From contig NZ_CP010341.1 in assembly GCF_000940845.1 (NCBI RefSeq), positions 2,430,001 to 2,462,000 on the forward strand: a stretch of 32,000 bases of DNA, given 5' to 3'. The stretch comes from Propionibacterium freudenreichii subsp. freudenreichii. Lineage in GTDB: Bacteria > Actinomycetota > Actinomycetes > Propionibacteriales > Propionibacteriaceae. Made by a program: the position numbers and the translations under genes. The notes under the pieces are model-generated. The model was not told the origin of the DNA. It saw only the letters and a program-made list of their open reading frames with translations, and ran no database searches. Shown one piece after another: positions 2,783 to 23,053 of the stretch. Position 1 is the stretch's first letter; each line of letters starts with the position of its first letter.

Positions 2783-3380
2783 ACAAAGCTGGCCAGTCAG
2801 GCCCTGGACGAGGTGCGTCGCCGAGTCCAGCAAGACACCCTGGGGCGCAGGGGACACGCCAAAGACCCCTTGTATCGGGCTCGGAGACTCCTCCTCACCG
2901 GCGCCAACCACCTCACCGAGAAGATGGCGACCAAGCTGGATGCCCTCCTCCAAGAAGGCGACCCGAACTGGGAGGTGACCATCACTTGGACCGTCTACCA
3001 GAAACTGATCGATGCCTACCAGCAGAGCGACTCCCATGACATGGTCACCCTCATCGATGCTCTCAAGGACCTGGGGGTACCTCCCGCTTGGAGCGAAGCA
3101 CGCGGGGGAGCCGATTCCTGAGGTCGCCAGGCTGGGGCGCACCTTGAAAGCCTGGAAGAGGGAGATCCTGGCCTATTGGCACACCGACCGCTCGAACGCG
3201 GGCCCCACCGAGGCGATCAACAACGTCATCGAGACCACCCGACGCATCGCCCGCGGCTTCCGCAACTTCGACAACTACCGCCTGCGGATCCTCGCCTCAG
3301 CCTCCGGACAACGCCCCTACCGCCAACCCCCGAAACTCGTCAAGCAAGGACAACCAAACCACGCTGAATGACGAAGAGCC
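2783..3380 (+). mobile_element. Partial copy of ISL3-B (3' 598 bp including an intact right terminal repeat), truncated on the left by ISL3-A
   Basis: Near-identical to 5846-6432 of the longer copy, with a handful of substitutions. Ends ...ccacgctgaatgacgaagagcc at 3380. Carries the same internal frameshift as the long copy. Confidence 0.9.
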
Positions 3381-3389
3381 GGATATCCC

Positions 3390-4328
3390 CTATCCATGAA
3401 CCACCGTGAACTTGTCGGAGATCCGACGATAGTGCTTTCTGGGAACTCCTCCAATTTCAGAAACACCGTCTCGCAAAAAAACTCCAGCGAAACGATATGC
3501 ACGAACTCTGGTGACGGGATCGACGGCCTGAATGAATACTACTCGCTTCTGTCCAGTAGCCGAATCTATTGCATTCCAATCCTCATTGTATTCATCCAGA
3601 CTCAGCCCGTCATCCGAGAGCATATTGTTCCAGCCACGACTGACCGCATGCCCCGCAACTGCTTTCTTGGGAAACCAGACCAAATACTCGCTGCCATAGA
3701 TCGACCGGAGAGAACTGGGAACAAAGCAAGACTTGCGAGGACCTCTACTCTCCAGAGAGTATGAAGACCCAAGAATCGAGTTGCATACCGTGGCAATATT
3801 GGCGAATCCGATGTCATCGGCCATGGAAATCTCATCACGGTTCTGGAAGTATGCAAATGGATCGTCCGGTTCAATCACCCAAGGCGAGAAGCCGCCACTT
3901 TGCCGGAGGGTCTCGATTCGTGCGCGCAGCTTTCCAACCACGTCATCGATGGCATTGTCAACCGCTTCAAGCGGAGCCCATTGAACGTTCCCAGTGTGAT
4001 CCCTGACAAACACGTCGATGTCAAGTTGTTGATACCCACTGTTCGGTTGAACTTGATGCAGCACATCGAATATGGTAATCGTTCTGCCCGCGTCTTGCTC
4101 TGAGCGAGTTGCGTGATACGGTTCGTTGCATTCGATGCCCATATTGAGCTGTGGAAAGTACAAGTCAATGAAGTATCGCGACCGAGGATCGATCGCAACC
4201 AGCTTCTGGGAGACCGGCTGGACTTCAGAGTCGTCGAGGCGGTTCCAAACCGCGTTCACGACGTAGTTCTCATAGTCTTTGCGACTCGTTCGCGAGAGTG
4301 TCCGCGCCAAGTACTCCAGTTTTTCCAC
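3390..4328 (-). CDS. Putative modification-dependent (type IV) restriction endonuclease of PvuRts1I/AbaSI-like architecture
   Basis: 312 aa. GTG start with AGGAGA 6 nt upstream. The N-terminal half has a Vsr/DUF559-like nuclease signature, IDLYFPQLNMGIECNEPYH. The C-terminal half has VWFPKK...WNNMLSDDG and VRAYRFAGVF, resembling the SRA-like domain of that family (recognised from memory, not searched). Low-GC codon usage. Confidence 0.6.
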   Translation of the reverse strand: MEKLEYLARTLSRTSRKDYENYVVNAVWNRLDDSEVQPVSQKLVAIDPRSRYFIDLYFPQLNMGIECNEPYHATRSEQDAGRTITIFDVLHQVQPNSGYQQLDIDVFVRDHTGNVQWAPLEAVDNAIDDVVGKLRARIETLRQSGGFSPWVIEPDDPFAYFQNRDEISMADDIGFANIATVCNSILGSSYSLESRGPRKSCFVPSSLRSIYGSEYLVWFPKKAVAGHAVSRGWNNMLSDDGLSLDEYNEDWNAIDSATGQKRVVFIQAVDPVTRVRAYRFAGVFLRDGVSEIGGVPRKHYRRISDKFTVVHG

Positions 4329-4560
4329 GGCTATTCTCCTCTAGACAGTCTGGGCCAACGCCCGTTGGCGGCGGTCTTGCATGATCAAGCAGAACCACGT
4401 CAGCGGGCTTCCTTCTGGCCACGAGATCCATTGCAGCGCCCGAACTCAATGCTCATCCAGTCTACCCTCCTGATGCCCAGTTGTACGGCGGTTGACAGTG
4501 GACAGATCTTCTGAGCACAAAAGGCTGCCCAGCAGGGAACTGCACGCATATGCTTCGAGC

Positions 4561-4900
4561 ATGTCTACCGACTTGGGCGGGCTCCTAACCGCCGTTCAAC
4601 AGGATCTCGGCGACTCAGCGAACTGGCAGTGTCCTGTCGAGTTCCACGACTCGTTGGCCCTGTGCGCGCTCAACTCCGCATACTCCCTTCGCGCTACCTC
4701 AGCCTCAGTCAAGAAAGTGATCTCGCTATACCGGGAGTCTCGTGCGACAGCGGATACCGACAGTGGACCCGATCTCCTCCAGTTCATGCAGGAAGCGGGC
4801 GGGCCCGAGGACTTCGCTCGCGATGTTCTGCAAAACCTGAGCAAACTGCCCGGCACGAGTCGACTTCGAACCGTTGGGATACATGAAGCACTGACAAACC
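4561..4900 (+). pseudogene. Hypothetical protein, 3' end removed by ISL3-B insertion
   Basis: ATG at 4561. 113 codons of plausible low-GC coding sequence (MSTDLGGLLTAVQQ...GIHEALTN) run straight into the ISL3-B left terminal repeat at 4901. Divergent from the endonuclease gene. Confidence 0.5.
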
Positions 4901-6432
4901 GGCTCTTCGTCATTCAGCGTGGTTTGGTGAGGCTGGCCTGAGTGTCGTGGGGTGGTGAGAGGGGTGTGTCGGTGCTGGTGAGAAGGGTCGGGGCCTTCTT
5001 GAATGGGAAGCGTTCAGACTCACCCGTTCGAAGAAGACCCCGACCGTGTTCCACACTACCTGCACTCATCCCGGCTACTGCACGCTCGCTGATGCCATCG
5101 CTGACCTCCCCGGCTTCCACGTCACGCGTGTGGACCGCTCACCTGCGGGCCTGCGTCTGAACGTCGAGACCGACCCTGGGGGAGTGCTCTGCCCCGCCTG
5201 TGGGGTCCAGGCTGTGGCGGATGGTCGCCAACAACGTCTCCTCCACGACATCGGTGTCTTCGGTGTCCCTGTCCTCCTCGTGTGGTCCAGGCGCACCTGG
5301 CGGTGCAGGCAACACTCCTGCCCCCAGGTCTCGTGGGGGGAAGAGACGCAGTTGGCTCCACCCCTGCCAAGCACTTCACGACCCGAGCCATCACCTGGGC
5401 TGTGAACCAGCTTCTCACCCGAGACGTTGTCATCTCCGCCCTGGCCCGGGACCTCCAGGTGGGGTGGCGCACCTTGTGGAAGGCAATCGAGGGACCCCTC
5501 CAGGAGCGCCTCAAGGAGATCAGCGACCAGGCCAGCGTGGAAGCCCTGGGCCTCGACGAGCACGTGTGGCGTCATTGCGGGCCCCACAAGAATCGGATGA
5601 TCACCGGGGTGGTGGACCACACGAGGCCGAAGAGAGGCAAGGACGGGAAGACGAAGCCGTTCGCGAGGCTCCTGGATGTCCAGGTCGGGCGCTCGGGAGC
5701 GGTCGCTGAGGACTGGTTGGCCTCCCAAGGCAAGGAGTTCGCGAGCAAGATCCTCATCGCTGCCATCGACCCCTACAGGGGCTATGCCAACGCGATCTCA
5801 GCGACCCTGAAAGAGGCGGACATGGTCGTCGACATCTTCCACGTGACAAAGCTGGCCAGTCAGGCCCTGGACGAGGTGCGTCGCCGAGTCCAGCAGGACA
5901 CCCTGGGGCGCAGGGGACACGCCAAAGACCCCTTGTATCGGGCTCGGAGACTCCTCCTCACCGGGGCCAGCCACCTCACGGAGAAGATGGCGACCAAGCT
6001 GGATGCCCTCCTCCAAGAAGGCGACCCGAACTGGGAGGTGACCATCACTTGGACCGTCTACCAGAAGCTGATCGATGCCTACCAGCAGAGCGACTCCCAT
6101 GACATGGTCACCCTCATCGATGCTCTCAAGGACCTGGGGGTACCTCCCGCTTGGAGCGAAGCACGCGGGGGAGCCGATTCCTGAGGTCGCCAGGCTGGGG
6201 CGCACCTTGAAAGCCTGGAAGAGGGAGATCCTGGCCTATTGGCACACCGACCGCTCGAACGCGGGCCCCACCGAGGCGATCAACAACGTCATCGAGACCA
6301 CCCGACGCATCGCCCGCGGCTTCCGCAACTTCGACAACTACCGCCTGCGGATCCTCGCCTCAGCCTCCGGACAACGCCCCTACCGCCAACCCCCGAAACT
6401 CGTCAAGCAAGGACAACCAAACCACGCTGAAT
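4901..6432 (+). mobile_element. ISL3-family insertion sequence, copy B (nearly complete; last 11 bp of the right repeat replaced by IS3-A)
   Basis: The left repeat ggctcttcgtcattcagcgtggtttggt at 4901 is a perfect 28-bp inverted match to the right repeat preserved at 3353-3380. The sequence diverges after gctgaat at 6432. Confidence 0.9.
5046..6432 (+). pseudogene. ISL3 family transposase broken into three frames
   Basis: Three successive ORFs (5046-5405, 5282-6184, 6075-6545) together give a full ISL3 transposase: zinc-finger N-terminus, GLDEHVWRH, AIDPYRGY, SNAGPTEAINN. Frame changes are near the C-run at about 5355 and the G-run at about 6135. The native stop is lost to the IS3 junction. 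Confidence 0.8.
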
Positions 6433-7377
6433 TGGGGTTACCCGCAAGTTTCGGACGGTTGGATTGGTCCAGGCGGCCCGTGTCAGGGCTGCCGCGTGTT
6501 GGGCTTCGAACTCGACTGGGGTCTGGTAGCCGATCGCTGAGTTGAGGCGCTTCGTGTTGTAGAAGTCGTAGATCCACTCCTCCACGCCCTGAATGGCCTG
6601 CTGGGGGGTGTCCCACTCGTAGCGGTCGTAGAACTCAGCCTTCAACACGGACCACTGGGATTCGATCATCGCATTGTCCCAGCACACCCCGGTGCGTCCC
6701 ATTGACTGGTCGAGGTGGAGTTCCCGGCAGCACTCATACATCTGCTCGGAGGTGAATTGCGTGCCACGGTCGGAATGGATGATCACTTTCCTGGGCGCGT
6801 TCGGGCGAATAATGCGAGCCCGGCGCAACGCCTCCTCCACGAGGTCCGTCGTCATGGTCGTCGACATGGCGGTTGCGATGACCTTCCGGGAGCAAGCGTC
6901 CTTGATGGCGCACAGGTACACCCACCCGGCCCGCGTCCTCAGGTAGGTGATGCCGGTGACCCACACGCGATCCACCTGCCCCGTGTCCCAGTGTCGCTTG
7001 ACCCGGTCAGGGATCGAATGCGTGCGCGTCCCCGGTATCGTCGTCACCGGACGGAACCGGCGCGGGCTGATGCCCGCAAGGCCCTGACGGCGCATCGAGG
7101 CCGCCACCGTCTTACGATCCACCACCACCCCCTCACGGCGAAGCTGGGCGCACACACGCAGGTACCCGTACGTGCTTCGGGAGTCCACCCATATGCGGCG
7201 CACCGCCTCATCCAGGCGCCGACGCGCCCGGAGGCTGGGGAGAAGATGATCCCCATCCCGCTGCTGGGCCGCAACCCACGCGTAGTACCCGGAAGTGGAC
7301 ACTTTCAACAGGCGGGCCATCCGGGCAATCGGGTACCGAGCCTTCTCCGCCTGCATCAGCGTGTACTTCTCACTCAC
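6403..7377 (-). CDS. IS3 family transposase OrfB (DDE integrase)
   Basis: HSDRGTQFTS and CWDNAMIESQW motifs. GTGA start/stop overlap with orfA. The ORF has no stop inside the element and reads 30 nt into the flanking ISL3-B sequence. Confidence 0.85.
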   Translation of the reverse strand: MSEKYTLMQAEKARYPIARMARLLKVSTSGYYAWVAAQQRDGDHLLPSLRARRRLDEAVRRIWVDSRSTYGYLRVCAQLRREGVVVDRKTVAASMRRQGLAGISPRRFRPVTTIPGTRTHSIPDRVKRHWDTGQVDRVWVTGITYLRTRAGWVYLCAIKDACSRKVIATAMSTTMTTDLVEEALRRARIIRPNAPRKVIIHSDRGTQFTSEQMYECCRELHLDQSMGRTGVCWDNAMIESQWSVLKAEFYDRYEWDTPQQAIQGVEEWIYDFYNTKRLNSAIGYQTPVEFEAQHAAALTRAAWTNPTVRNLRVTPIQRGLVVLA

Positions 7378-7679
7378 TGATGCTTCGCAGCGAAGAAGGC
7401 CGCTGCTTTTCCCAAGAACTCGTTGTCCATCCGCAGGTCCGCGTTCTCCTTGCGGAGCCGCTTCAACTCCTCGCGTTCATCCGGACTCAACGTGCTCGGC
7501 GTCATGGTCTCCTTCTCTGCCTTCACCCACCTGCCCAACAGTTGGGGACCCAGCCCCAGCTCCTGGGCGACCTCGGCGATCGTGCGACCCGAGTCGATCA
7601 CCATCCTCGCCGCCTCATGGCGGTACTGGGCCGTGAACTTGCGACGCTGCCTCCGCGTCTTCTCGTTCCCCGTGCTCAT
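7374..7679 (-). CDS. IS3 family transposase OrfA (HTH)
   Basis: MSTGNEKTRRQRRKFTAQYRHEAARMV...LRKENADLRMDNEFLGKAAAFFA. The ATG at 7679 is inside the element; the longer ORF-track start at 7748 lies outside it. Confidence 0.85.
   Translation of the reverse strand: MSTGNEKTRRQRRKFTAQYRHEAARMVIDSGRTIAEVAQELGLGPQLLGRWVKAEKETMTPSTLSPDEREELKRLRKENADLRMDNEFLGKAAAFFAAKHQ
7407..7413 (-). other. Candidate -1 programmed frameshift heptamer G GGA AAA for an OrfAB fusion
   Basis: The minus strand reads TTG GGA AAA GCA in the orfA frame. The -1 frame stays open from here into orfB (GKSSGLLRCEASVSEK...). Confidence 0.5.
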
Positions 7680-7748
7680 GACAACACCTTCCCCCAGGGC
7701 CACCAGGCCCCGCCACATCAGGTGTCCGAAAAACCAGGGTAGGCCCAC

Positions 7749-7964
7749 TGCACGGCTGGCGGCACCATGGCGGTGAAGCGCGGCACCACCTATTGCACCT
7801 TCGGCACGCAGGTGCAGACAGCACTTGCTGCCGACGCCACGCGCACGTCGCTCACCCTCACCAACAGCCAGACCAGACGGTCAGTGGCCGTCACCTGCGC
7901 CAAGGGCACCACGATCACCACATGCACCGGGGACGACGGTTCGGTGGTCTGGCTGCGCGGCTGA
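7749..7964 (+). pseudogene. 3' fragment of an unknown Thr/Cys-rich protein, cut by IS3-A
   Basis: The frame is open from the IS3 boundary to the stop at 7962-7964: ...TYCTFGTQVQTALAADATRTSLTLTNSQTRRSVAVTCAKGTTITTCTGDDGSVVWLRG. Confidence 0.3.
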
Positions 7965-8046
7965 CCCGGCGCGCTCGGAGGCCGTGCGCCTGGATGCGTA
8001 CGACCGGACCACGGCGCACGTCGGGGCATGGTGCCACACTGGAGAC

Positions 8047-8979
8047 ATGCTTGCCCATGTGTTCGGTCTGGAGGCCGATTGGCCCGGCCAGGATCTCGTG
8101 GGCTTCACCGACACCATCGACACCGAGTTGACGCTGGCAGCCTATGCGTCGGGCCTGTTCCCGATGCCGCTGCATGAGTCCGATTTTCATGGCATGGGCT
8201 GGTGGTCGCCCGTACGTCGCGCCATCCTTCCGCTGGGGGCGCTGCGGGTGAGTCATTCGCTGCGGCAGGCGCTCAACCATTACCGAACCTCGGTCGACAC
8301 CGCCTTCGAGCAGGTGCTGGCCGGCTGCGCCGACCCAAAGCGTCCCGACGGCTGGATCGACCAGGATGTGGTCGCCGTGTACACGCAATTGTTCGAACGC
8401 GGCGTGGCGCATTCGGTGGAAACCTGGGATGACGAAGGACGTCTGGTGGGCGGCCTGTATGGCGTGGGTATGCGTGGCCTGTTCGCCGGTGAATCGATGT
8501 TCCACGACCCCGAACATGGCCGGGATGCGTCGAAGGTGGCGCTGGTGCGTCTGGTCGACACCTTGCGGGCGCGCCCAGATGGGGTGGCGCTGTCGGCTGA
8601 TGTCTGGGTGTTCCCCCGGCCACCCCCGTACGTGCCCGCTGCCCGCACCCGTCTGATCCCCTCAACTCTCACCGTCTGGCAGAGGAAACAATCATGCCGA
8701 GCAAGAACCAGCCGACCACTGAGCAGGTCGCAAAAACCAAACGGAGGGCCGAAACCGTATCGGCCTACGCATCCAAGGGCTGGGTGCAGGCCGTCGCTTT
8801 CGTCATGTTGCTGGGTTTCGGCATCATGGCAGCGCTTGCGATGCGCACCTACACCGACTCGATGCCCCAGCCCGATCGCATCGTCAATGAGCAGGGCCAG
8901 GAGATCATCTCCACCGAGCAGATCAGCCACGGTCAGGCGCTCTACCAGAGCCGCGGCCTGCAGGAATACGGCTCGGTGA
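8047..8979 (+). CDS. aat: Leucyl/phenylalanyl-tRNA--protein transferase-like; 3' end aberrant
   Basis: GLFPMP, WWSPVRRAIL, AHSVETWDDEGRLVGGLYGV and FAGESMFH...ASKVAL match Aat motifs. Similarity fades after about 8590, and the frame has no stop until 8979, 285 nt inside the next gene. Confidence 0.6.
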   Translation: MLAHVFGLEADWPGQDLVGFTDTIDTELTLAAYASGLFPMPLHESDFHGMGWWSPVRRAILPLGALRVSHSLRQALNHYRTSVDTAFEQVLAGCADPKRPDGWIDQDVVAVYTQLFERGVAHSVETWDDEGRLVGGLYGVGMRGLFAGESMFHDPEHGRDASKVALVRLVDTLRARPDGVALSADVWVFPRPPPYVPAARTRLIPSTLTVWQRKQSCRARTSRPLSRSQKPNGGPKPYRPTHPRAGCRPSLSSCCWVSASWQRLRCAPTPTRCPSPIASSMSRARRSSPPSRSATVRRSTRAAACRNTAR

Positions 8980-11108
8980 TGGGCCACGGTGCCTATCTGG
9001 GCCCCGACTTCACCGCCGAATATCTGCGCCTGACCACCGACGCTGCCGTCGAGAAGTACACCGCCGATGGTGTGCAGGATCCTCGTCAGGCCGTCGAGGA
9101 CGAGTGGCGCACCAACCGTTACGACGAGAACACCGGCACCTTGGTGTGGACAGACCAGCAGATCGCCGGTTATCACCAGATGGTCGACTACTACACCGAC
9201 TTCCTGGGTTCGCCGACCACCGAGCATGGCATGTTCCCCAATGCACTCGAGCCCGGTGAAGAAATCGAGGACACCACCGCCTTCTTCGGTTGGACGGCGT
9301 GGGCATCGTCCACGAACCGGCCCGGTCACGACTACTCGTACTCGAACAATTGGCCCTCCGAGCCGAATGTGGGCAACGGCCCAACCGCCAATCTGATGAT
9401 CTGGTCGGTGCTGTCGCTCATCGTGTTGCTGGGTGGCATCGGCATTCTGTTCGCCGTCTATGGTCGCTGGTCGGCACGCATCGGCTGGCATGGTGAAGAA
9501 GCCCCGGTGCTTGATTTCCGCCAGCCCGACGAGGTGCATCTGACGCCCAGCCAGAAGGTTTCGGGCCTGTTCTTCGTGGTGATCATGGTGTTGTTCTTCG
9601 CCCAGGCGATGGTGGGCGCGCTCACCGAGCACTACCGGGTCGAGCTCACCGGCTTCTTCGGTATCGACATCGCCCAGATCCTGCCCTACACGGTCTCGCG
9701 CACCTGGCATGTGCAGCTGTCACTGCTGTGGACTGCCGCCGGGTTCCTGGCGGCCGGCATCTTCCTGGCACCGCTGATCACCCGCAAGGAACCCAAGAAG
9801 CAGGGCTTCCTCACCGGCGTGCTGCTGGTGGCCGTGGCCATCGTGGTGTTCGGCTCGCTGGCCACCGAATGGTTGAGCCAGAAGGGCATCCTGCCCGAGG
9901 GTTCACTGTTCTCTCAGCAGTGGGAGTATCTGGATTTGCCCAGGCTGTTCCAGATCGCATTGACCGTGGGCATGTTCTTGTGGATGTTCATCGTGATCCG
10001 CACGCTGCGCTCCAAGCTCAACAGCACCAAGAAGACGTCGCTGCCGTGGCTGTTCATGTTCTCCGGTCTGGCCATCCCGATGTTCTATGCGGTGGGCATG
10101 CTGGCCGGTTCCGAGACCCACTTCTCGGTGGCCGAGTTCTGGCGCTTCTGGGTTGTTCACCTGTGGGTTGAGGACTTCCTGGAGCTGTTCACCACCGTGA
10201 TGGTTGCCTATGTGTTCGTGCTGCTGGGTGTGGTGCGTCAGAAGATGGCGATTTCGATCATCATGCTCGACGTCATCCTGTATTCGCTGGGTGGCGTGGT
10301 GGGCACCATGCACCACCTGTATTTCTCGGGCACCAGCGCCGAGACGATGGCTTTCGGTGCCGTGTTCTCGGCTGCCGAGGTGATCCCGTTGACGTTCTTG
10401 ACGGTGGAAGCCTGGGGCTTCATGCAGTTGGGTTCGCGTCAATACACCAACCGCACCAAGCCGTTCCCGCATCGTTGGGCCGTGATGTTCCTCATCTCCG
10501 TGGGTTTCTGGAACTTCCTGGGTGCCGGCATTTTCGGCTTCCTGATCAACCTGCCGATCGTGTCGTACTACGAGATCGGCACGGCCTTGACCGCCAACCA
10601 TGCGCATGGCTCGATGATGGGCGTCTACGGCATGTTGGCGTTGGCGTTCGCGGTGTTCGTGTTGCGCTACATCATTCCCGAGAAGGAATGGCCCGAGAAG
10701 GGCGTCAAATGGGCGTTCTGGGCAACCAACATCGGCTTGGTGTGGATGGTGTTCATCTCGCTGCTGCCGTTGGGTGTCGCCCAGCTGTACCAGAGCGTCG
10801 GCAAGGGTTATTACGATGCCCGTGCCATCGGCTACATCACCGATCCGGGCAATACTCTGCTCGACTGGTTGCGCATGCCCGGTGACGTGATCTTCCTGTC
10901 GGGCATCGTGCCGCTGCTGTGGCTGGCGTGGAAGGCGCTGAAGTCGTACTTCAGCAAGGATTCCAAGCCGGTTGTCTACGAATTGATGGATCCGCCGCTG
11001 TACGAGGCGCTGACCGATGAGCGCATCGCCGAGATGGCTGCCGCCAACAAGGCCGATGCGGTTCCCGATCAGGTGAGCCCCTACCGCAGCGATCGCAGAG
11101 AGGAATAA
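8694..11108 (+). CDS. norB: Quinol-dependent nitric oxide reductase (qNOR, heme-copper oxidase superfamily)
   Basis: 804 aa with an N-terminal extension plus 12+ TM segments. Motifs WVVHLWVEDFLE, MHHLYFSG and ANHAHGSMMGVYG. RBS aggaaa upstream. Confidence 0.95.
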   Translation: MPSKNQPTTEQVAKTKRRAETVSAYASKGWVQAVAFVMLLGFGIMAALAMRTYTDSMPQPDRIVNEQGQEIISTEQISHGQALYQSRGLQEYGSVMGHGAYLGPDFTAEYLRLTTDAAVEKYTADGVQDPRQAVEDEWRTNRYDENTGTLVWTDQQIAGYHQMVDYYTDFLGSPTTEHGMFPNALEPGEEIEDTTAFFGWTAWASSTNRPGHDYSYSNNWPSEPNVGNGPTANLMIWSVLSLIVLLGGIGILFAVYGRWSARIGWHGEEAPVLDFRQPDEVHLTPSQKVSGLFFVVIMVLFFAQAMVGALTEHYRVELTGFFGIDIAQILPYTVSRTWHVQLSLLWTAAGFLAAGIFLAPLITRKEPKKQGFLTGVLLVAVAIVVFGSLATEWLSQKGILPEGSLFSQQWEYLDLPRLFQIALTVGMFLWMFIVIRTLRSKLNSTKKTSLPWLFMFSGLAIPMFYAVGMLAGSETHFSVAEFWRFWVVHLWVEDFLELFTTVMVAYVFVLLGVVRQKMAISIIMLDVILYSLGGVVGTMHHLYFSGTSAETMAFGAVFSAAEVIPLTFLTVEAWGFMQLGSRQYTNRTKPFPHRWAVMFLISVGFWNFLGAGIFGFLINLPIVSYYEIGTALTANHAHGSMMGVYGMLALAFAVFVLRYIIPEKEWPEKGVKWAFWATNIGLVWMVFISLLPLGVAQLYQSVGKGYYDARAIGYITDPGNTLLDWLRMPGDVIFLSGIVPLLWLAWKALKSYFSKDSKPVVYELMDPPLYEALTDERIAEMAAANKADAVPDQVSPYRSDRREE

Positions 11109-12988: not shown

Positions 12989-13312
12989 TTGGATATGCCA
13001 GAGTCATTGACGCAGGCCGAGCCCATTGCCCTGTCGCAGGCGGTGTCGCCGCTGGTGTTGGCGATGGACATCGGCTCCACCTCGAGCCGGGCTGCGGTCC
13101 ATGACGCGCTGGCACGCCCGGTGGTGGGGCATCAGACCGAGGCGAAGCATCGTTTTCATGAGGCCTCCGATGGCACATCCGAGATCGATGCCGATGCGAT
13201 GGTTGCCGAGATTTCCGGGCTCATCGGCGAGACGGTCCAGGGCTTGCCGGCATCCAGCATCGCGGCGGTGGCGATGGACACGTTCGCCAGCTCGCTGGTG
13301 TGTGTCGACGAT
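12989..13312 (+). pseudogene. FGGY-family sugar kinase (gluconokinase-like), N-terminal ~105 codons only
   Basis: LAMDIGSTSSRAAVHDA...IAAVAMDTFASSLVCVD matches the N-terminal actin-fold of FGGY kinases. Similarity stops near 13310, and the frame ends at 13417 in unrelated sequence. Confidence 0.6.
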
Positions 13313-13374
13313 CATGGTGGCGTTGACGATCCTCGACCCCCGCAGCCGTCCGTTGGTCCCAGGGGTGGCGCCGA

Positions 13375-13667
13375 TGACATCGGAGGAGTATCAGCGGGCG
13401 TTGACCGGGGTTCATGACGTGGTGGCCTCTGCAGTCGCACTCCCGCCCGCCGATGCAGGAGAAGCACTCGCCAGCATGGACATGGGGATCCGTGCCGTCA
13501 CCCTGAGTAGCGGGGAGCTGGGGTTCTGGTCGCGTCGCGATGAAGTTGGCAGGGCGGTGGTTCGCGGAGACCTCGACACCGTGCGCTACTCCGCGTTCTT
13601 GGAAGCCCTTGGTGAGCACGTTGTCTGGCCCAAGGCGGACATGCAGCGAAACAGCGTCGAGGGTTGA
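13375..13667 (+). CDS. Small hypothetical protein (97 aa), or the 3' remnant of a longer gene
   Basis: ATG at 13375 after aggggtgg. Convergent with the next gene, 17 nt apart. The frame is also open upstream to 13026, so it could be a fragment. Confidence 0.35.
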
Positions 13668-13684: not shown

Positions 13685-14568
13685 TCACGCCTCCCAGAGA
13701 TGGACCTGGTAGTCCATCAGCCGTGCGGCGCGAAGACGCCGACCCATCGAGGGATGTACCGCGATCTCCTTGGTGACCATCGAGGCAGGCTTTCCGTATC
13801 CGGGAAAGGAGAGCGTTCCAGACTTCGGCACCGGTTGCCAGCTGTCCCCCGGTTGAACGATCAGTCGCGGATCGGATCGACGTGCGCCCCAGAGGTAAAG
13901 AGTCTCTTTCAATAGCTGGTCCAAGAACGTACACATCGACCCTCGCAAGCCCTCCAGCACCGTCTGCGGCGTGGACACCAGGAACATGGAACTCATCGTG
14001 CCTGCTTTTCCGGCGTCGATCATGGCACGTGTGCCCACCCAGTCCGGCTGACTGGGCAAGGGATTGATCACACCCGTCGGACGCGCCCTGGTGCCCACCA
14101 TCTGGATCAATGACATTCGCGGTGCACGGTGCACCATCGTGTTGCGCTGAGCGATCAGCCAGGAAAGCCAGTCCTCAGGGCCATGATCCTCGGGTTTCAG
14201 GACATCTGAGAGCAGAGCATTCTGTCGCTCACGCCCCGATGTGCCGACATCAGCCAGCACACCCTGTCGCAACCCTTGGCCACGACCGTTCTTCAGCGCC
14301 TTGACGGCCACCTTCTGAAGTTCGCCCCAATCGGTGCGAATGACGTCGCACTTGATCCCGGCGACAATGACGATCACCGCGGCAACCCGGTCGAGGGCCT
14401 GTCCAAGGCTGACGATGGTCTGCTCTAGCCATGCGTCGAGTCGATCCTCACGCCGCTGTCCGGCATCTCCGAGAGCCTGCTGAGCGCCGATCAGTTCGTC
14501 GCGGGATCCCCCACGCTTGGCAATGGCGCGCCAGGCCTGCGTCAACGCATGGTCGCGGGCACATGAGC
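13685..14568 (-). pseudogene. C-terminal 294 codons of an IS-disrupted ORF carrying an RNxxxH (HEPN/Abi-like) motif
   Basis: The frame is open up to the IS3-B boundary at 14569. Motif WLSWLIAQRNTMVHRAPRM. It continues in frame with 17419-17668 once the IS is removed. Confidence 0.7.
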
Positions 14569-14599
14569 TGAAGCGCCCTGGGTCTGATGGAGACTCGCG

Positions 14600-14917
14600 C
14601 TATTTGATTCCGATCAGCAGATTGCTGTCGTTGGGGACAGCATAGAACGCGTTCTCGAACTCGGCGGGTGGGACGTCTCCGAGGTATCCGTGGAGGCGCT
14701 GCGTGTTGTGCCAGTGCACCCAGCCGAGCGTCGCGAGCTCGAGATCCTCGACCGTCTTCCACGGTCCCGAGCGGGTGGGCCCGCGAACCAACTCGGCCTT
14801 GTAGTAGCCGTTCACCGTCTCGGCCAGGGCGTTGTCATACGAATCGCCGACGGTCCCGATCGAGGGTGTCGCACCGATCTCTGCGAGGCGTTCGCCGTAG
14901 CGAATCGATGTGAATTG
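14600..14917 (-). pseudogene. IS3-B OrfB, C-terminal fragment
   Basis: QFTSIRYGERLAEIGATPSIGTVGDSYDNALAETVNGYYKAEL... joins in frame to ...HSDAGCQ at 16415. Confidence 0.85.
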
Positions 14918-16414
14918 CCTGGGTTCAACCGGTCGTTGCAACACCGGGTTGTTGGAGCGAGTGTAACTGCTCCTGGAATACTTCGGCGGGGGTCTTCCAG
15001 TCGAGGCTCTTGCGGGGTCGGTTGTTCAGTGCGAGGGCGACTGCTTCGAGGTCTTCAGCGGACCATCGTGAGAGGTCGGTGCCCTTCGGGAAGTATTGCC
15101 GCAGCAACCCGTTGGTGTTCTCGTTCGTCGGCCTCTGCCAGGGCGAGTGGGGGTCGGCGAAGAACACCTTCGTGCCCGTCTCGAGCGCGAACTGGGCGTG
15201 CGCGGAGAGTTCTTTGCCGCGGTCCCAGGTGAGCGTCTTGCGGAGCTGTTCGGGGAGCTTCATCATCGACGCGATGAGCGCGGCGTTCATCGCGACTGCG
15301 CCGTAGCCGCCCAACGCGGGCCCGTTCTTGATCGGCGGCGCCTCGCCCCACCCGTCCAGCCTCGGCAGGTGCACCAGCAGGGTCGACCGGCTCTTGCGTT
15401 CGACGAGAGTGCCGATCGCGGACCGGCCCGTGCCGATGATCAAGTCGCCCTCCCAATGCCCGGGCACGGCGCGGTCCGCGGCTGCTGCGGGCCGTTCGGA
15501 GAACACGACATCGGCGGTGACGTGACCTTGCGGGCGGTTCTGTGCTCGAGCCCGCGGCTGCCGGAGGGCGCGGCCGGTGCGCAGGCACGTGACGAGCTCG
15601 CGTTTGAGCGCACCACGGCCCTCAATGAACAGCGACTGGTAGATCGCCTCGTGGCTGATGCGCATGGATTCATCATCCGGGAAGTCGACCTTCAGCCGGT
15701 GCGAGATCTGCTCCGGGCTCCACGCGGTCGCCCACCGCCGGTCCTGCCGGTGAGGTTTGTTCAGCCCCTTCCATGCCGGCGGTTCCGGCCCCACGACGAT
15801 GCTGCCGTCAGGCCGACAGACGTTTCCGGCGAGGCGCTCCTGAACGTACTCACGCAACCGGTCGTTGGTCGCGAGCTTCGCCGTCTTCGGGCGCTTCGCT
15901 GTCTGCTGAGCCTTCCATTGCGCTACCAACGCCCGGTACTCCTGCTTCCCGCTGCGCGTGGCCGCGTTGCGGCGCAGTTCGCGGGAGATCGTTCCCGGGT
16001 CGCGGCCGATCCTGCGCGCGATCTCACGCACGCCGACCTGCTTGGCGCGCAGGAGCGCGATCTCCTCACGCTCCTCGAAGGACAGGTAACGGCCGCTGGG
16101 CTCGGCAAGTGAGATCGGTGGCATGCCGCCAGCGTGGCGAAACCAACGGGACCCGACCGGCACAGACACGCCCACCTTCAGAGCCGCTTCGGCTGAGGTG
16201 ATGCCCGTCGCGATCAGACGCCAGAACTGCCGCTGCACCGCCCGCGAGGGCTCAGGCCGCCCGGGCGAACGCATCGGCGGACGCAACGCCCGATCCGCAC
16301 GCCATTGCCGACGCGCACCCTCGGGCACATCGCTCGTCTTCGCGGCCCAGTCCCTCGTCGCCACAGCTGAACACCTCCACGGTCAAGGTGTTGCGACGAC
16401 CAGTTGAATTCACC
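14918..16414 (-). mobile_element. IS30-family insertion sequence (1497 bp) nested in IS3-B orfB
   Basis: Imperfect 28-bp terminal repeats: cctgggttcaaccggtcgttgcaacacc at 14918 and ggtgttgcgacgaccagttgaattcacc ending at 16414. 3-bp direct repeats TTG at 14915-14917 and 16415-16417. Confidence 0.9.
14925..16364 (-). CDS. IS30 family transposase
   Basis: 479 aa. HTH N-terminus (REIARRIGRDPGTISRELRRN), HWEGDLIIG, TLTWDRGKE and PWQRPTNENTNGLLRQYFPKGTDL. Confidence 0.9.
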   Translation of the reverse strand: MATRDWAAKTSDVPEGARRQWRADRALRPPMRSPGRPEPSRAVQRQFWRLIATGITSAEAALKVGVSVPVGSRWFRHAGGMPPISLAEPSGRYLSFEEREEIALLRAKQVGVREIARRIGRDPGTISRELRRNAATRSGKQEYRALVAQWKAQQTAKRPKTAKLATNDRLREYVQERLAGNVCRPDGSIVVGPEPPAWKGLNKPHRQDRRWATAWSPEQISHRLKVDFPDDESMRISHEAIYQSLFIEGRGALKRELVTCLRTGRALRQPRARAQNRPQGHVTADVVFSERPAAAADRAVPGHWEGDLIIGTGRSAIGTLVERKSRSTLLVHLPRLDGWGEAPPIKNGPALGGYGAVAMNAALIASMMKLPEQLRKTLTWDRGKELSAHAQFALETGTKVFFADPHSPWQRPTNENTNGLLRQYFPKGTDLSRWSAEDLEAVALALNNRPRKSLDWKTPAEVFQEQLHSLQQPGVATTG

Positions 16415-17194
16415 TTGACAGCCCGCGTCGCTGTGACACCGCAGATCCTCATGGTGGGCGCCTCGGGACCAGCGCGCCATCTCGATCGCGTCGAGGACCA
16501 TCTCGGTGCGCATATGTGACGCGACCCGCCACCCCACGATCATCCGGGAGAACGCGTCGATGATGAAGCAGACGTAGGCGACGCCAGCCCAGGTGGGCAC
16601 GAATGTCAGATCGGTCACCCAGAGCCGGTTCGGTGCCGTCGCGGTGAACTCCCGCTTGACCAGGTCCGGGTGCCGCGACGACGCCGGGTCCGGCCGCGTG
16701 GTCTTCACCCGCTTCGACCGCCTCGCACCTTCGATCCCTGCGACGCGCATCAGCCTCGCAGTCTGGTCGCGGCCGATCATGATGCCCCCACGCCGGGCAG
16801 CCTTCCAGAGCTTGCGGACCCCGTAGACGCGGTAGTTGGCCTCCCAGATCTCGACCAGCTGCGGGATCAGTTCCTCGTCACGCAGCGCACGGGCAGAGGG
16901 CGCACGGGTCTTGGCGGCGTAGTAGCTGCTCGGAGCCACCTGCAACAGTCTGCAGATGAGCTCGACTCCGAGCCGGCGACCGTCCACGACGTCGTCCTTG
17001 TTCGCGTCGATGAACGCGACTACTTCCGGTAGTGGCGGTCGAGCTCCGCCCCGAAGAAAGACGCCGCCCGTTTCAGCACCTCGTTGGCCCGGCGCAGCTC
17101 CCGATTCTCTTGCTCGAGCTCTTTCACCCGCTGCTCCTCCGCCGAGCTCACACCGGGGACGACACCGTCGTCGACGTCGGCCTGCTTGACCCAC
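16415..17194 (-). pseudogene. IS3-B OrfB, N-terminal part (-1 frame relative to orfA)
   Basis: YGVRKLWKAARRGG, NRLWVTDLTFVPTWAGVAYVCFIIDAFSR and LRCHSDAG, then the IS30 junction. Confidence 0.8.
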
Positions 17195-17364
17195 ATCCGC
17201 ACGGACTCGACCCCGTAACCGAGCTGCGTCGCGACCCGCTGCACCGTCCCCTGCGTGACGCCCAGCTCCGCGCGCAGCGTCCTCACCATCCGCACCGCGG
17301 CGGCCTTCTCCTCGACCGAGTAGCGACGCGTCGTCGGCTTCCCATTCGCCAGTTCCTTCGGCAT
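17020..17364 (-). CDS. IS3 family transposase OrfA
   Basis: MPKELANGKPTTRRYSVEEKAAAVRMV...ENRELRRANEVLKRAASFFGAELD. The ATG at 17364 is inside the element. Confidence 0.85.
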   Translation of the reverse strand: MPKELANGKPTTRRYSVEEKAAAVRMVRTLRAELGVTQGTVQRVATQLGYGVESVRMWVKQADVDDGVVPGVSSAEEQRVKELEQENRELRRANEVLKRAASFFGAELDRHYRK

Positions 17365-17418
17365 AACCCCATCCTCGTTTCCAAGGTCAGGAGTCTCCAA
17401 CAAACTCAGGGCGCTTCA

Positions 17419-17668
17419 AGCTTTCTCTATACTCCTGGATGGCCAGCGAGGCTTTGATCAAGGCTTCCGACACACCGCCGCAAGCAGACAGTAGATACTC
17501 CCCCAGTTCCGCTGAGACTTGCCAGCCCACGTATCCTCGCCACCAGCCAATCCCGCCCTGATTGTCGTCAAGGTCGGCCAAGATCTCATCCATGAGACGA
17601 GCCACCGAGGATGTGACCGGCTCGACTGCGCTGCGGTAGGACGTCATAGCCCCAGCGTAGAAGGACAT
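17419..17668 (-). pseudogene. N-terminal 83 codons of the IS-disrupted RNxxxH-motif ORF
   Basis: MSFYAGAMTSYRSAVEPVTSSVARLMDEILADLDDNQGGIGWWRGYVGWQVSAELGEYLLSACGGVSEALIKASLAIQEYRES, then the IS3-B terminus. The start codon choice (17668) is uncertain. Confidence 0.55.
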
Positions 17669-19598: not shown

Positions 19599-19817
19599 TG
19601 TCCGTCTTCGACCTCGCCCAGACTGACCCTATCGAAGGAGCCGAGCCGATCCCCGAAAACCCCGCTGACGCCCACCAGCTCAGCGGCGACGACCCCGCTG
19701 GCATCGCCGAGGCCGTGACCGACTGGCTCACCGGCCAGGGCTGGGCCATCGAGCACAACCAGCTCGGGGCCGGACTCAACGGCTACACCAGCCCCGACGA
19801 CAAGCGAATCGTGATCG
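19599..19817 (+). pseudogene. Fragment of an unknown gene (possibly from a conjugative or mobile element), cut by ISL3-C
   Basis: Open frame VSVFDLAQTDPIEG...AVTDWLTGQGWAIEHNQLGAGLNGYTSPDDKRIVIG runs into the ISL3-C terminus at 19818. The ...GxNGYT...I.I pattern recalls ArdC/ImmA-type peptidase domains (weak, from memory). Confidence 0.25.
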
Positions 19818-21131
19818 GGCTCTTCCCAGATGAGGGTGTAGGTGTGGTCTGAATCCGCCGGCTTCGAGGAGTGCGCGGGCGATGTAGTTGGTGAGGTTGC
19901 GGAAGCCGAGGGCCAGGCCACGCAGGTGCTCGAGGCGACCGTTCACGGCTTCGGTAGGTCCGTTGCTCGTGCGCGGCCGGTCGAAGTAGGCCAGGACGTC
20001 GCAGGCGCGTCTTGTCAGGGTGCGGCCGAGCTTGCGCAGTTCTACCAACGCCTCAGGCACACCCTCGGCGAGGGCGTCGATCACGGAGCTCATCTCGACG
20101 CGGCCGGCTGCCCGGTCGGGGTGACGGTAGGCGGAGATCATGCGCTGGTAGATCCCCCAGGTGCACTCGACGTGCACGTGCCGGTCCCCAGCGAAGAGCT
20201 TGTCAAGGCGCTCGTGCTGGCGGTCGGTGAGCAGGTCAGCCCCGGTGTGCAGGGTCCGCCGCGCGGTGTAGAGCGGGTCGCCCTTGCGTCCGCGGTGTCC
20301 GTGCAGTTCCTGCTGGACTCGGCGGCGGCACTCATCGAGAGCGTCCCCGGCCAACCGGATGACGTGGAAGGGATCCATAACCGTGACGGCGTCCGGCAGC
20401 TCCTCGGTGGTGGCGGTCTTGAAGCCCGCGAACCCATCCATGGCCACGACCTCGATCCCATCGCGCCAAGCCTGGTCCCGCTCGGCCAGCCAGTCCTTGA
20501 ACGCCTTCTTCGACCGACCTTCGACCACGTCCAGCAGGCGTGAGGGCCCGGTGCCGTCCCGGACCGGGGTGAGGTCGATGATCACGGTGACGTACTTGTC
20601 ACCGCGCCGGGTGTGCCGCCACACGTGCTCATCGACCCCGACGACCTTGACACCGTCCAGGCGGGTCGGGTCCTCGATGAGCAGACGCCGGCCCTCAGCC
20701 AGGACCGCGTCGTTGGCGGTGTTCCACGCCACGCCCAGTCCTTCGGCAACTCGGGCCATCGACAGGTGGCCGACGACGATCCCGACCAGACCCCACCGCA
20801 GGCCGGCGCGGGAGATCTTGGCCCGCGGCGGCGCCGCAGCGGTGGTGTCCTGACGCCACACGTGCGAGCACTCCTTGCAGCGGTAGCGGCGCACGGTGAG
20901 CACCAGCGTGGTAGGGCGCCACCCGAACGGCTCGTGCGCCAACTCCCTGCTCACCGTGTCACGGGGCACGCCCTGGCAGCCGCACCGCCTGCACCAGTCG
21001 TCCGGCTCCACGACCCGGCACGCCAGCACGGACCGGTCAGGCTCGAGCAGCTGGCCGGTGACCTCCAGACCGAGGCCGTCGAGGCGGGTGAAGGTAGTCA
21101 GGTCAGGGCGCGTGAAGGTAGCGTCAGGCAC
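19776..21131 (-). CDS. ISL3 family transposase (paralogue of copy A)
   Basis: 451 aa, colinear with the copy A transposase. The last 13 residues are encoded outside the element because the in-repeat stop is missing. Confidence 0.9.
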   Translation of the reverse strand: MPDATFTRPDLTTFTRLDGLGLEVTGQLLEPDRSVLACRVVEPDDWCRRCGCQGVPRDTVSRELAHEPFGWRPTTLVLTVRRYRCKECSHVWRQDTTAAAPPRAKISRAGLRWGLVGIVVGHLSMARVAEGLGVAWNTANDAVLAEGRRLLIEDPTRLDGVKVVGVDEHVWRHTRRGDKYVTVIIDLTPVRDGTGPSRLLDVVEGRSKKAFKDWLAERDQAWRDGIEVVAMDGFAGFKTATTEELPDAVTVMDPFHVIRLAGDALDECRRRVQQELHGHRGRKGDPLYTARRTLHTGADLLTDRQHERLDKLFAGDRHVHVECTWGIYQRMISAYRHPDRAAGRVEMSSVIDALAEGVPEALVELRKLGRTLTRRACDVLAYFDRPRTSNGPTEAVNGRLEHLRGLALGFRNLTNYIARALLEAGGFRPHLHPHLGRARSRFACRRGWCSR

Positions 21132-21955: not shown

Positions 21956-23048
21956 TGTACTTCCCCGGGAGGTTGTGAACGGGTGAGGTAGCGAAGACCT
22001 CCGGGCAGGATGTGGGTTACCACACTCACTCTCCTGACCACGGAGGTCTTCGTGACTCACGCTAACGCACCCTTGACACCGGAAGGGCGTCGTCGTCTTG
22101 CTGTTCTCGTCGTGGAACAGGGCTGGTCGTTGCGGCGGGCGGCGGAACGGTTCCAGTGCTCGCCCGCGACGGTGAAGCGGTGGGCCGACAGGTACCGGGC
22201 AGGGCTGCCGTTGATCGACCGTAGTTCGAGGCCCACCTCGTCACCGAACCGGCTTTCGCGTAAGACGGAGCATCGGATCGTCGCGTTGCGGTTCACTCGC
22301 CGGTGGGGTCCGCACCGGATCGCGTATCACCTGCGGTTGCACCGTTCCACGGTCGGTCGGGTGCTCGCCCGATACAAGATGCCGAAGCTGATCAACATCG
22401 ACCAGGCCACCGGGCTGCCGGTTCGCCGCCCGAAGCCGAAACGGTACGAGGTCGCCGCGCCGGGCCAGCTCGTGCACGTAGATATCAAGAAACAAGGCCG
22501 GATCCCCGACGGCGGCGGGTGGCGTGCCCACGGTCGCGGATCCATGCAGGACCGTCACGCGGGAGTGGCCCGCGACAAGGCAGCCCGTGCCGGGGCAGCC
22601 GGCTCTCGCGGCTACCGGTATCTGCACCACGCCGTGGACGACCACTCCCGGATCGCGTACTCAGAGATCCTTGACGACGAGCGCAAAGAGACCGCAGCGG
22701 GGTTCTGGACCCGCGCGAACGCGTTCTTCGCAGGCCTGGGCGTCACAGTCACCGCGGTGATGACCGACAACGGTTCCTGCTACCGGTCAGGCGCCTTCGC
22801 TGACGCGCTCGGCGACGAGGTGAAGCACAAGTGGACCCGGCCATACCGGCCGCAGACCAACGGCAAGGTCGAGCGGTTCAACCGAACCCTCGCCGTCGAG
22901 TGGGCCTACGCGAAGCCCTACGCCAGCGAAGCCGAGCGCGCCGCAGCCTACGAGACCTGGCTCCATCACTACAATCACCACAGACCCCACACCGGGATCG
23001 GCGGCCAGACTCCCTCAGCCCGCGTTCACAACGTCACGGGGAAGTACA
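21956..23048 (+). mobile_element. IS481-family insertion sequence (1093 bp)
   Basis: Terminal repeats tgtacttccccg (21956) and cggggaagtaca (ends 23048). 6-bp direct repeats GCTAGC at 21950-21955 and 23049-23054. Confidence 0.9.
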
Positions 23049-23053
23049 GCTAG
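22052..23053 (+). CDS. IS481 family transposase
   Basis: GTG at 22052 after cggagg. THANAPLTPEGRRRLAVLV, HVDIKK, MTDNGSCY and RPQTNGKVERFNRTL. The stop TAG lies in the duplicated target. Confidence 0.9.
   Translation: MTHANAPLTPEGRRRLAVLVVEQGWSLRRAAERFQCSPATVKRWADRYRAGLPLIDRSSRPTSSPNRLSRKTEHRIVALRFTRRWGPHRIAYHLRLHRSTVGRVLARYKMPKLINIDQATGLPVRRPKPKRYEVAAPGQLVHVDIKKQGRIPDGGGWRAHGRGSMQDRHAGVARDKAARAGAAGSRGYRYLHHAVDDHSRIAYSEILDDERKETAAGFWTRANAFFAGLGVTVTAVMTDNGSCYRSGAFADALGDEVKHKWTRPYRPQTNGKVERFNRTLAVEWAYAKPYASEAERAAAYETWLHHYNHHRPHTGIGGQTPSARVHNVTGKYS

Follow-up and report, generated by a model that had tools for sequence, protein, structure and literature searches.

A gene family with a HEPN-like motif on actinobacterial mobile elements, one member of which is split by nested insertion sequences in Propionibacterium freudenreichii

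HEPN proteins are defined by an Rx4-6H motif that lies at helix-3's end and runs into the loop toward helix-4, by a polar residue after the arginine, and by a conserved acidic residue of helix-2 that sits near the motif (PMC3710099). Here, we consider a gene whose product carries such a motif, and which lies in two pieces at positions 13685-17668 of a 32,000-nucleotide stretch of the Propionibacterium freudenreichii subsp. freudenreichii genome (contig NZ_CP010341.1, positions 2,430,001 to 2,462,000; hereafter, the window). Among the closest described systems, the Abi_2 proteins (AbiD/AbiF, PF07751) resemble the family to which this gene belongs: both are helical and stand-alone, are encoded by a single gene, have an RNxxxH-type motif with a basic residue after it, and travel on mobile elements; on Rhodococcus plasmids, an Abi_2 gene is even found two genes upstream of a family member. 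Unlike Abi_2, the family is about 100 amino acids (aa) longer, has very long helices, and shows HR where Abi_2 has HHxR. ApeA-type HEPN proteins (PF18739) are likewise single-protein systems, and a sub-threshold match to them spans the motif of one family member (P0080), whereas the N-terminal domain of ApeA consists mostly of beta strands (PMC3710099) and the family is helical. Finally, gp57r of mycobacteriophage Butters, also a stand-alone defence protein of actinobacteria, owes its HEPN call mainly to its Rx4H motif, with weak HHpred support, but it is phage-encoded and its motif, RDRCAH at residues 94-99, lies far closer to the N-terminus than the R224-H229 motif described below. Our preferred reading, which draws on sequence, a predicted structure and genomic context and to which we give an even chance of being correct, is that the gene encodes a stand-alone, divergent HEPN-like ribonuclease (RNase) effector of mobile elements that is inactivated here by a nested insertion of two insertion sequences (ISs).

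The gene lies on the minus strand, with a 5′ part (17422-17668) that holds codons 1-82 and the first base of codon 83, and a 3′ part (13685-14568) that runs from the remainder of codon 83 to the stop codon and is colinear with the intact gene in contigs L002-L005. Excision of 14569-17421 yields a single minus-strand open reading frame (ORF) of 376 codons, containing WLIAQRNTMVHRAPRM, in which ...AIQEYRES is joined in frame to SCARDHAL..., placing the insertion point at Ser83/Ser84 of the protein. In L002-L005, which represent four samples and share 99.5-99.9% identity with both flanks in the window, the gene is uninterrupted, with a DNA identity of 99.7-99.9%, and a single AGC stands at the joint. 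These natural empty sites confirm that the gene is split, and together with the excision and translation they bear out a preliminary description of the window, in which the ORF had been rebuilt on paper. The length given there needs adjustment: all 376 codons are open, but the start used by homologues and by NCBI annotations is Met8 (MTSYRS, at 17647), which is probably the true start and gives an intact protein of about 369 aa. The upstream ATG (17668) is only 4 nt from the GTG start of a divergent holin-X gene (17673), and a very short divergent promoter region must serve both the split gene and holin-X. The preliminary description had also expected the ORF to go unreported by annotation, and the interrupted genome indeed gives fragments only; the intact alleles, however, are annotated in other P. 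freudenreichii strains as "hypothetical protein", and the 90%-identity cluster of the gene has 153 members. With a G+C content of 61.5% and a third-position G+C content (GC3) of 0.70, compared to 0.77-0.91 for neighbouring genes, the gene is lower in G+C than the backbone, as had been noted, and its GC3 is consistent with horizontal acquisition.

The element that interrupts the gene (14569-17418, minus strand) has TG...CA ends, its termini being TGAAGCGCCCTG... on one side and ...CAGGGCGCTTCA on the other, and terminal inverted repeats that are imperfect and about 28 bp long; it is flanked by AGC target-site duplications (left copy, 14566-14568; right copy, 17419-17421). Because the target site AGCT is palindromic, the duplication can be read as 3 or 4 bp. 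While orfA is found at 17020-17403, orfB is broken by a second element (14918-16414, minus strand), whose transposase spans 14925-16364 and which is bounded by TTG duplications (14915-14917 and 16415-16417). In silico removal of this inner element and one TTG leaves an outer element of 1350 bp with uninterrupted orfA and orfB, and its ORFs match the Pfam domains HTH_Tnp_1, HTH_21, rve and rve_3. The outer element, having an orfA with a helix-turn-helix (HTH) domain, an orfB with a DDE (rve) domain, TG..CA ends, inverted repeats and a 3-4 bp duplication, is a member of the IS3 family. The inner element, with a single HTH- and DDE-containing transposase, inverted repeats and a 3-bp duplication (2-3 bp being usual for the family), belongs to the IS30 family; its transposase matches HTH_38 above the Pfam cutoff, while rve reaches only 27.4 bits against a cutoff of 32.6 bits. 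Both are simple insertions with the repeats originally assigned to them, the coordinates first given for the outer element are correct, and a blastn comparison finds no second copy of the same IS3 within the window. The architecture of both elements is standard, with ends intact and duplications of 3 bp, and the target gene is the sole point of interest.

The gene belongs to an unnamed and undescribed family, as had been suspected, since searches of Pfam, NCBIfam, PADLOC and PDB yield no matching sequence model. Scanned exhaustively with HMMER, 1.84 billion representatives of 50%-identity clusters yield 441 members at E ≤ 1e-3, of which 254 reach E ≤ 1e-10, and nearly all full-length members are 340-410 aa long. 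A word-indexed search returns 11 close relatives, and a word-indexed profile search with A2, an alignment of 132 diverse members reaching down to about 22% identity, returns eight proteins, with no annotated relatives among them. All named sources of the family are Actinomycetota, namely the genera Brachybacterium, Corynebacterium, Mycobacterium, Rhodococcus, Kocuria, Pseudarthrobacter, Ornithinimicrobium and Pseudactinotalea, as well as Propionibacteriaceae. A literature search with six accession numbers of family members found no papers, and a tblastn search of 50,697 phage records found no phage-encoded homologues. Four residues are invariant across A2 (132/132), namely D142 (codon at 14390-14392, minus strand), W219, R224 and H229, with R230 present in 131 of the 132 members. 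Other conserved positions are spread over the whole 360 aa and include a DLDxxxGGxxWW block, W309, R312, Q321, W326, FxGYG and R360.

The HEPN-like character of the family centers on the motif R224-N-T-M-V-H229 (14129-14146, minus strand), which takes the general form R[N/H/D]xxxH. The preliminary description had recognized an Rx4H signature with an asparagine after the arginine, and this pattern extends to the family as a whole: the Rx4H spacing, within the Rx4-6H range of HEPN proteins, is kept in all 132 members, and the residue that follows the arginine is polar in 130 of them (N in 117, H in 9, D in 4). An AlphaFold model built with A2 is of high confidence (predicted local distance difference test score, pLDDT, 94.8; predicted template modelling score, pTM, 0.93) and almost wholly helical. 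By DSSP, it has long helices at residues 49-100 and 116-151; after an insert (152-215), the chain forms a short helix (216-229), passes through a loop that includes a beta-hairpin, and continues into a further long helix (283-314). In this model, R224 and H229 fall within the last residues of helix 216-229, which matches the helix-end placement of the HEPN motif if this helix is taken as helix-3, a label that is our own assignment. The invariant D142 is predicted to lie on the helix preceding the motif helix (116-151), with the insert between the two, and the order of helices is compatible with a HEPN four-helix bundle. In its motif and in its secondary structure, the family therefore stays close to the HEPN pattern, and on these grounds we consider its HEPN membership plausible.

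Several results weigh against this assignment. Structure comparison does not confirm the four-helix HEPN core that the preliminary description had anticipated: a Foldseek search of the pLDDT 94.8 model against PDB and BFVD returns no HEPN structure, with the caveat that Foldseek is weak on long, all-helical queries. The best PDB matches are instead ClyA-like, generic long helical bundles (E 0.45, TM-score about 0.2), the best BFVD match has an E-value of 0.017, and the helices of the model are much longer than those of canonical HEPN domains. (Foldseek with an earlier, low-confidence model of pLDDT 65.8 was uninformative.) Profile similarity is equally elusive, with none of significance to a known HEPN family in Pfam, hhalign or PDB sequence-profile comparisons. 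No match of the query passes in Pfam, NCBIfam or PADLOC, its only matches among PDB sequences are at E ~0.8, and a search of PDB sequences with the family profile is empty. Across the 132 members of A2, no Pfam HEPN family or PADLOC model recurs above noise: PADLOC-DB 2.0 gives scattered single-member matches only (E ≥ 0.0056), PHROGs likewise matches single members here and there, one member has an unrelated AMP-binding domain, and the A2 consensus finds nothing in Pfam. The only Pfam family to match more than two members is HEPN_Apea (PF18739), seen below threshold in 3 of the 132 (E 0.064); in P0080, this match covers residues 155-215 and takes in RNALTH, with 14.1 bits against a cutoff of 24.4 bits. 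The resemblance to Abi_2 that had been proposed extends to the motif and no further. Using an Abi_2 alignment seeded from a genuine Abi_2 protein of a Rhodococcus plasmid (L026:6489-7319, 27.2 bits in the same Pfam search), local hhalign places motif against motif over only 16 columns with a probability of 0.2%. Lacking a Pfam match as well, the family cannot be assigned to Abi_2 (PF07751), and this candidate is rejected. A housekeeping identity, which had been put forward as a counter-test, finds no match in the model searches, a result that speaks for the earlier interpretation. A further point against it is that, at the P. freudenreichii locus itself, the immediate neighbours of the gene are ordinary chromosomal genes.

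Elsewhere in the family, a qualitative rather than statistical survey of about 15 loci places the gene in mobile elements and defence islands, as had been expected of a defence gene. In Brachybacterium, it sits in a conjugation cluster with an FtsK-type ATPase, a NERD protein and a cell-wall hydrolase, while in Kocuria it is part of an integrase-bounded element. On Rhodococcus plasmids, the gene order is integrase, hypothetical gene, Abi_2, hypothetical gene and family gene, whereas on the linear Rhodococcus plasmids L025 and L030 the family gene comes first (613-1739, about 600 bp from the end of the record) and is followed by a hypothetical gene of 203 aa and an ImmA/IrrE metallopeptidase. 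A Mycobacterium plasmid rich in toxin-antitoxin genes carries the family gene, and a Mycobacterium island combines it with WhiB, a small terminase and a TIR protein. A Pseudarthrobacter plasmid island holds TIR and caspase proteins, a RelA/SpoT-like enzyme, an EcoRI-family methyltransferase and DUF262, another locus holds PIN, a CoiA nuclease, DUF4062 and IS110, and in one Propionibacteriaceae genome a Prim-Pol/AAA_25 module is found nearby. In two Corynebacterium species, a complete type I restriction-modification system lies 1-2.5 kb from the family gene; a PADLOC scan of 112 neighbour proteins, whose output was swamped by redundant models, confirmed two type I restriction-modification systems and little else. 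We looked for a conserved partner gene and rejected this possibility, as the neighbours from eight loci share no similarity by blastp. The family is thus stand-alone cargo of integrative and conjugative elements, plasmids, integrated elements and defence islands, with variable neighbours and no fixed partner. Downstream of the family gene in Corynebacterium propinquum (L011, ~8258-10705) are ORFs that by eye resemble an IntI1-type integrase, Sul1 and an acetyltransferase; these would represent the remnant of a class 1 integron adjoining the gene.

The earlier hypothesis of a HEPN defence or abortive-infection protein thus finds support in the motif, in its helix-end placement and in the mobile and defence contexts, but none from Foldseek or from any profile passing its cutoff. 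The locus is best explained as a horizontally acquired single gene that was inactivated by insertion of the IS3-family element at Ser83/Ser84, with the IS30-family element landing later inside the IS3. Under the HEPN-like reading, R224 and H229 of the intact protein would be the catalytic residues of a metal-independent RNase, paired at the end of a core helix, and the site would be completed by N225 and, from the long helix before it, by the invariant D142. The enzyme may be kept inactive by its long helical scaffold and by the conserved parts at both termini until a phage or plasmid provides a trigger, upon which RNA cleavage would arrest the cell, as in abortive infection. From the motif, the secondary-structure topology and the genomic context, we infer that the family is homologous to HEPN proteins, cleaves RNA, serves in defence and is activated in this way. 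The same data can be read differently. Given that neither structure nor profile searches link the family to HEPN or to any other group, that conserved residues are distributed over the entire chain, and that the gene is found inside the Brachybacterium conjugation cluster and at the ends of linear Rhodococcus plasmids, the family may not be homologous to HEPN proteins but may instead be an enzyme or ligand-binding protein of mobile elements with a new structure, in which the R..H pair, D142 and several invariant tryptophans make up a different site and which might serve in element maintenance, exclusion or anti-defence. We regard this main alternative as somewhat unlikely, as the motif obeys the HEPN rules in its Rx4H spacing, the N/H/D after the arginine, its position at a helix end and the upstream acidic residue, and the sole recurring Pfam signal is that of a HEPN family. 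More doubtful still is that a new helical, non-HEPN fold, built around a distinct R/H/D active site, serves as a hitherto unrecognised single-gene immunity or exclusion effector on mobile elements of Actinomycetota, a proposal that follows from having a confident model without a PDB or BFVD neighbour and no matching sequence model.

Two further explanations concern toxins. HEPN toxins frequently act in pairs, for example HepT/MntA, and the family protein might be the toxin of a toxin-antitoxin pair with a small, unrecognised antitoxin that stabilises the element rather than defending against phages. Small ORFs do occur close upstream of the gene at several loci, of 46 aa in L001 and L006 and of 113-161 aa in L022, L024, L026 and L027, and the gene is present on toxin-antitoxin-rich plasmids. 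We nevertheless find this pairing quite improbable, since by blastp neither the upstream nor the downstream neighbours share detectable similarity, the P. freudenreichii locus offers no candidate partner, and no MNT-type partner was seen. The top Foldseek matches in the PDB, which are proteins of the ClyA, Hbl, Nhe, AhlC and YaxA family, would in turn suggest a ClyA-like alpha-helical pore-forming or membrane-acting toxin. This reading is extremely improbable: the matches have E-values of 0.45-3 and TM-scores of about 0.2, as expected for any long helical bundle, the predicted hairpin at residues 238-250 is polar, and the invariant R, H, D and W residues better fit the site of an enzyme.

Within P. 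freudenreichii, allelic variation between strains is concentrated in codons 27-97 and 298-375 of the rebuilt gene, so that differences crowd into the first 100 and last 75 residues and leave residues 100-300 near-invariant. Compared to L002, the window has 12 mismatches, 7 of them within the gene, where six codons differ and every one of these differences changes the protein. Compared to the allele of strain CIRM-BIA1, there are 11 non-synonymous and 7 synonymous changes. The substitution density is about 9-fold above that of the flanks. Pseudogene decay after the insertion was considered and rejected, because the variants of the window are also present in other intact alleles and are therefore standing polymorphism.

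The same gene is damaged a second time in strains CIRM-BIA1 (L032) and JS15 (L031; both at ~6854-8018), in which a different IS3-family element abuts codon 20 and truncates the gene, the N-terminus being replaced by MKGAAH. The flanks there are unlike those of the window, with an SNF2 helicase, PTA and acetate kinase upstream and ISL3 downstream, and the sequences indicate an independent IS hit together with a rearrangement. Damaged-looking copies are also seen in three metagenome-assembled genomes (MAGs), where assembly errors are possible: an Ornithinimicrobium MAG (L013) with a frameshift, a Propionibacteriaceae MAG (L014) with an in-frame stop, and an uncultured Actinomycetota MAG (L017) with a copy truncated beside IS21-like ORFs, which were called by eye from translations. 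Such repeated damage could mean that the gene is costly, and it could equally mean that the gene is dispensable in IS-rich genomes; the data fit both.

Around the split gene, an ORF at 13026-13667 (plus strand) converges on its 3′ end and is only a fragment. In contigs with the intact locus, the corresponding ORF has 223 aa or is broken into two pieces (140 and 97 aa) and matches FGGY_N weakly, while L031 and L032 have a full FGGY kinase of 518 aa. From this comparison, the family gene may have arrived together with a deletion of the C-terminal half of the FGGY kinase. Exact protein matches, those of NorZ, a slipin, a BrkB-family protein and a histidine kinase, place the window in the P. freudenreichii chromosome. 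The window is very rich in ISs (1469-2776, 5282-6184, 6403-7748, 19776-21131 and 22010-23053), comprising ISL3 transposase genes (two full, one partial), a second IS3-family element unrelated to the first, and an ISPfr17-like element of the IS481 family. At 3390-4328 (minus strand), we also observe a gene for a modification-dependent (type IV) restriction endonuclease that resembles PvuRts1I and has an SRA domain (Pfam E 5.6e-36 and 4.2e-28). This gene lies about 9 kb from the split gene, within a low-G+C stretch (3001-5000), in an island of 56% G+C with copies of ISL3 and IS3 on its flanks, and it is likely a second defence cargo gene of the window.

In silico removal of ISs recovers genes that, in an interrupted genome, are otherwise annotated only as fragments. 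For this gene, P. freudenreichii provides a natural comparison among intact alleles, an IS3/IS30 knockout and a second IS3 truncation, and the phage sensitivity of dairy strains is directly comparable. The Actinomycetota, which include dairy, skin and pathogenic genera such as Propionibacterium, Corynebacterium, Mycobacterium and Rhodococcus, are under-sampled by current defence catalogues. If the HEPN-like reading is correct, the family would add an uncatalogued group of single-gene RNase effectors to the defence repertoire of this phylum.

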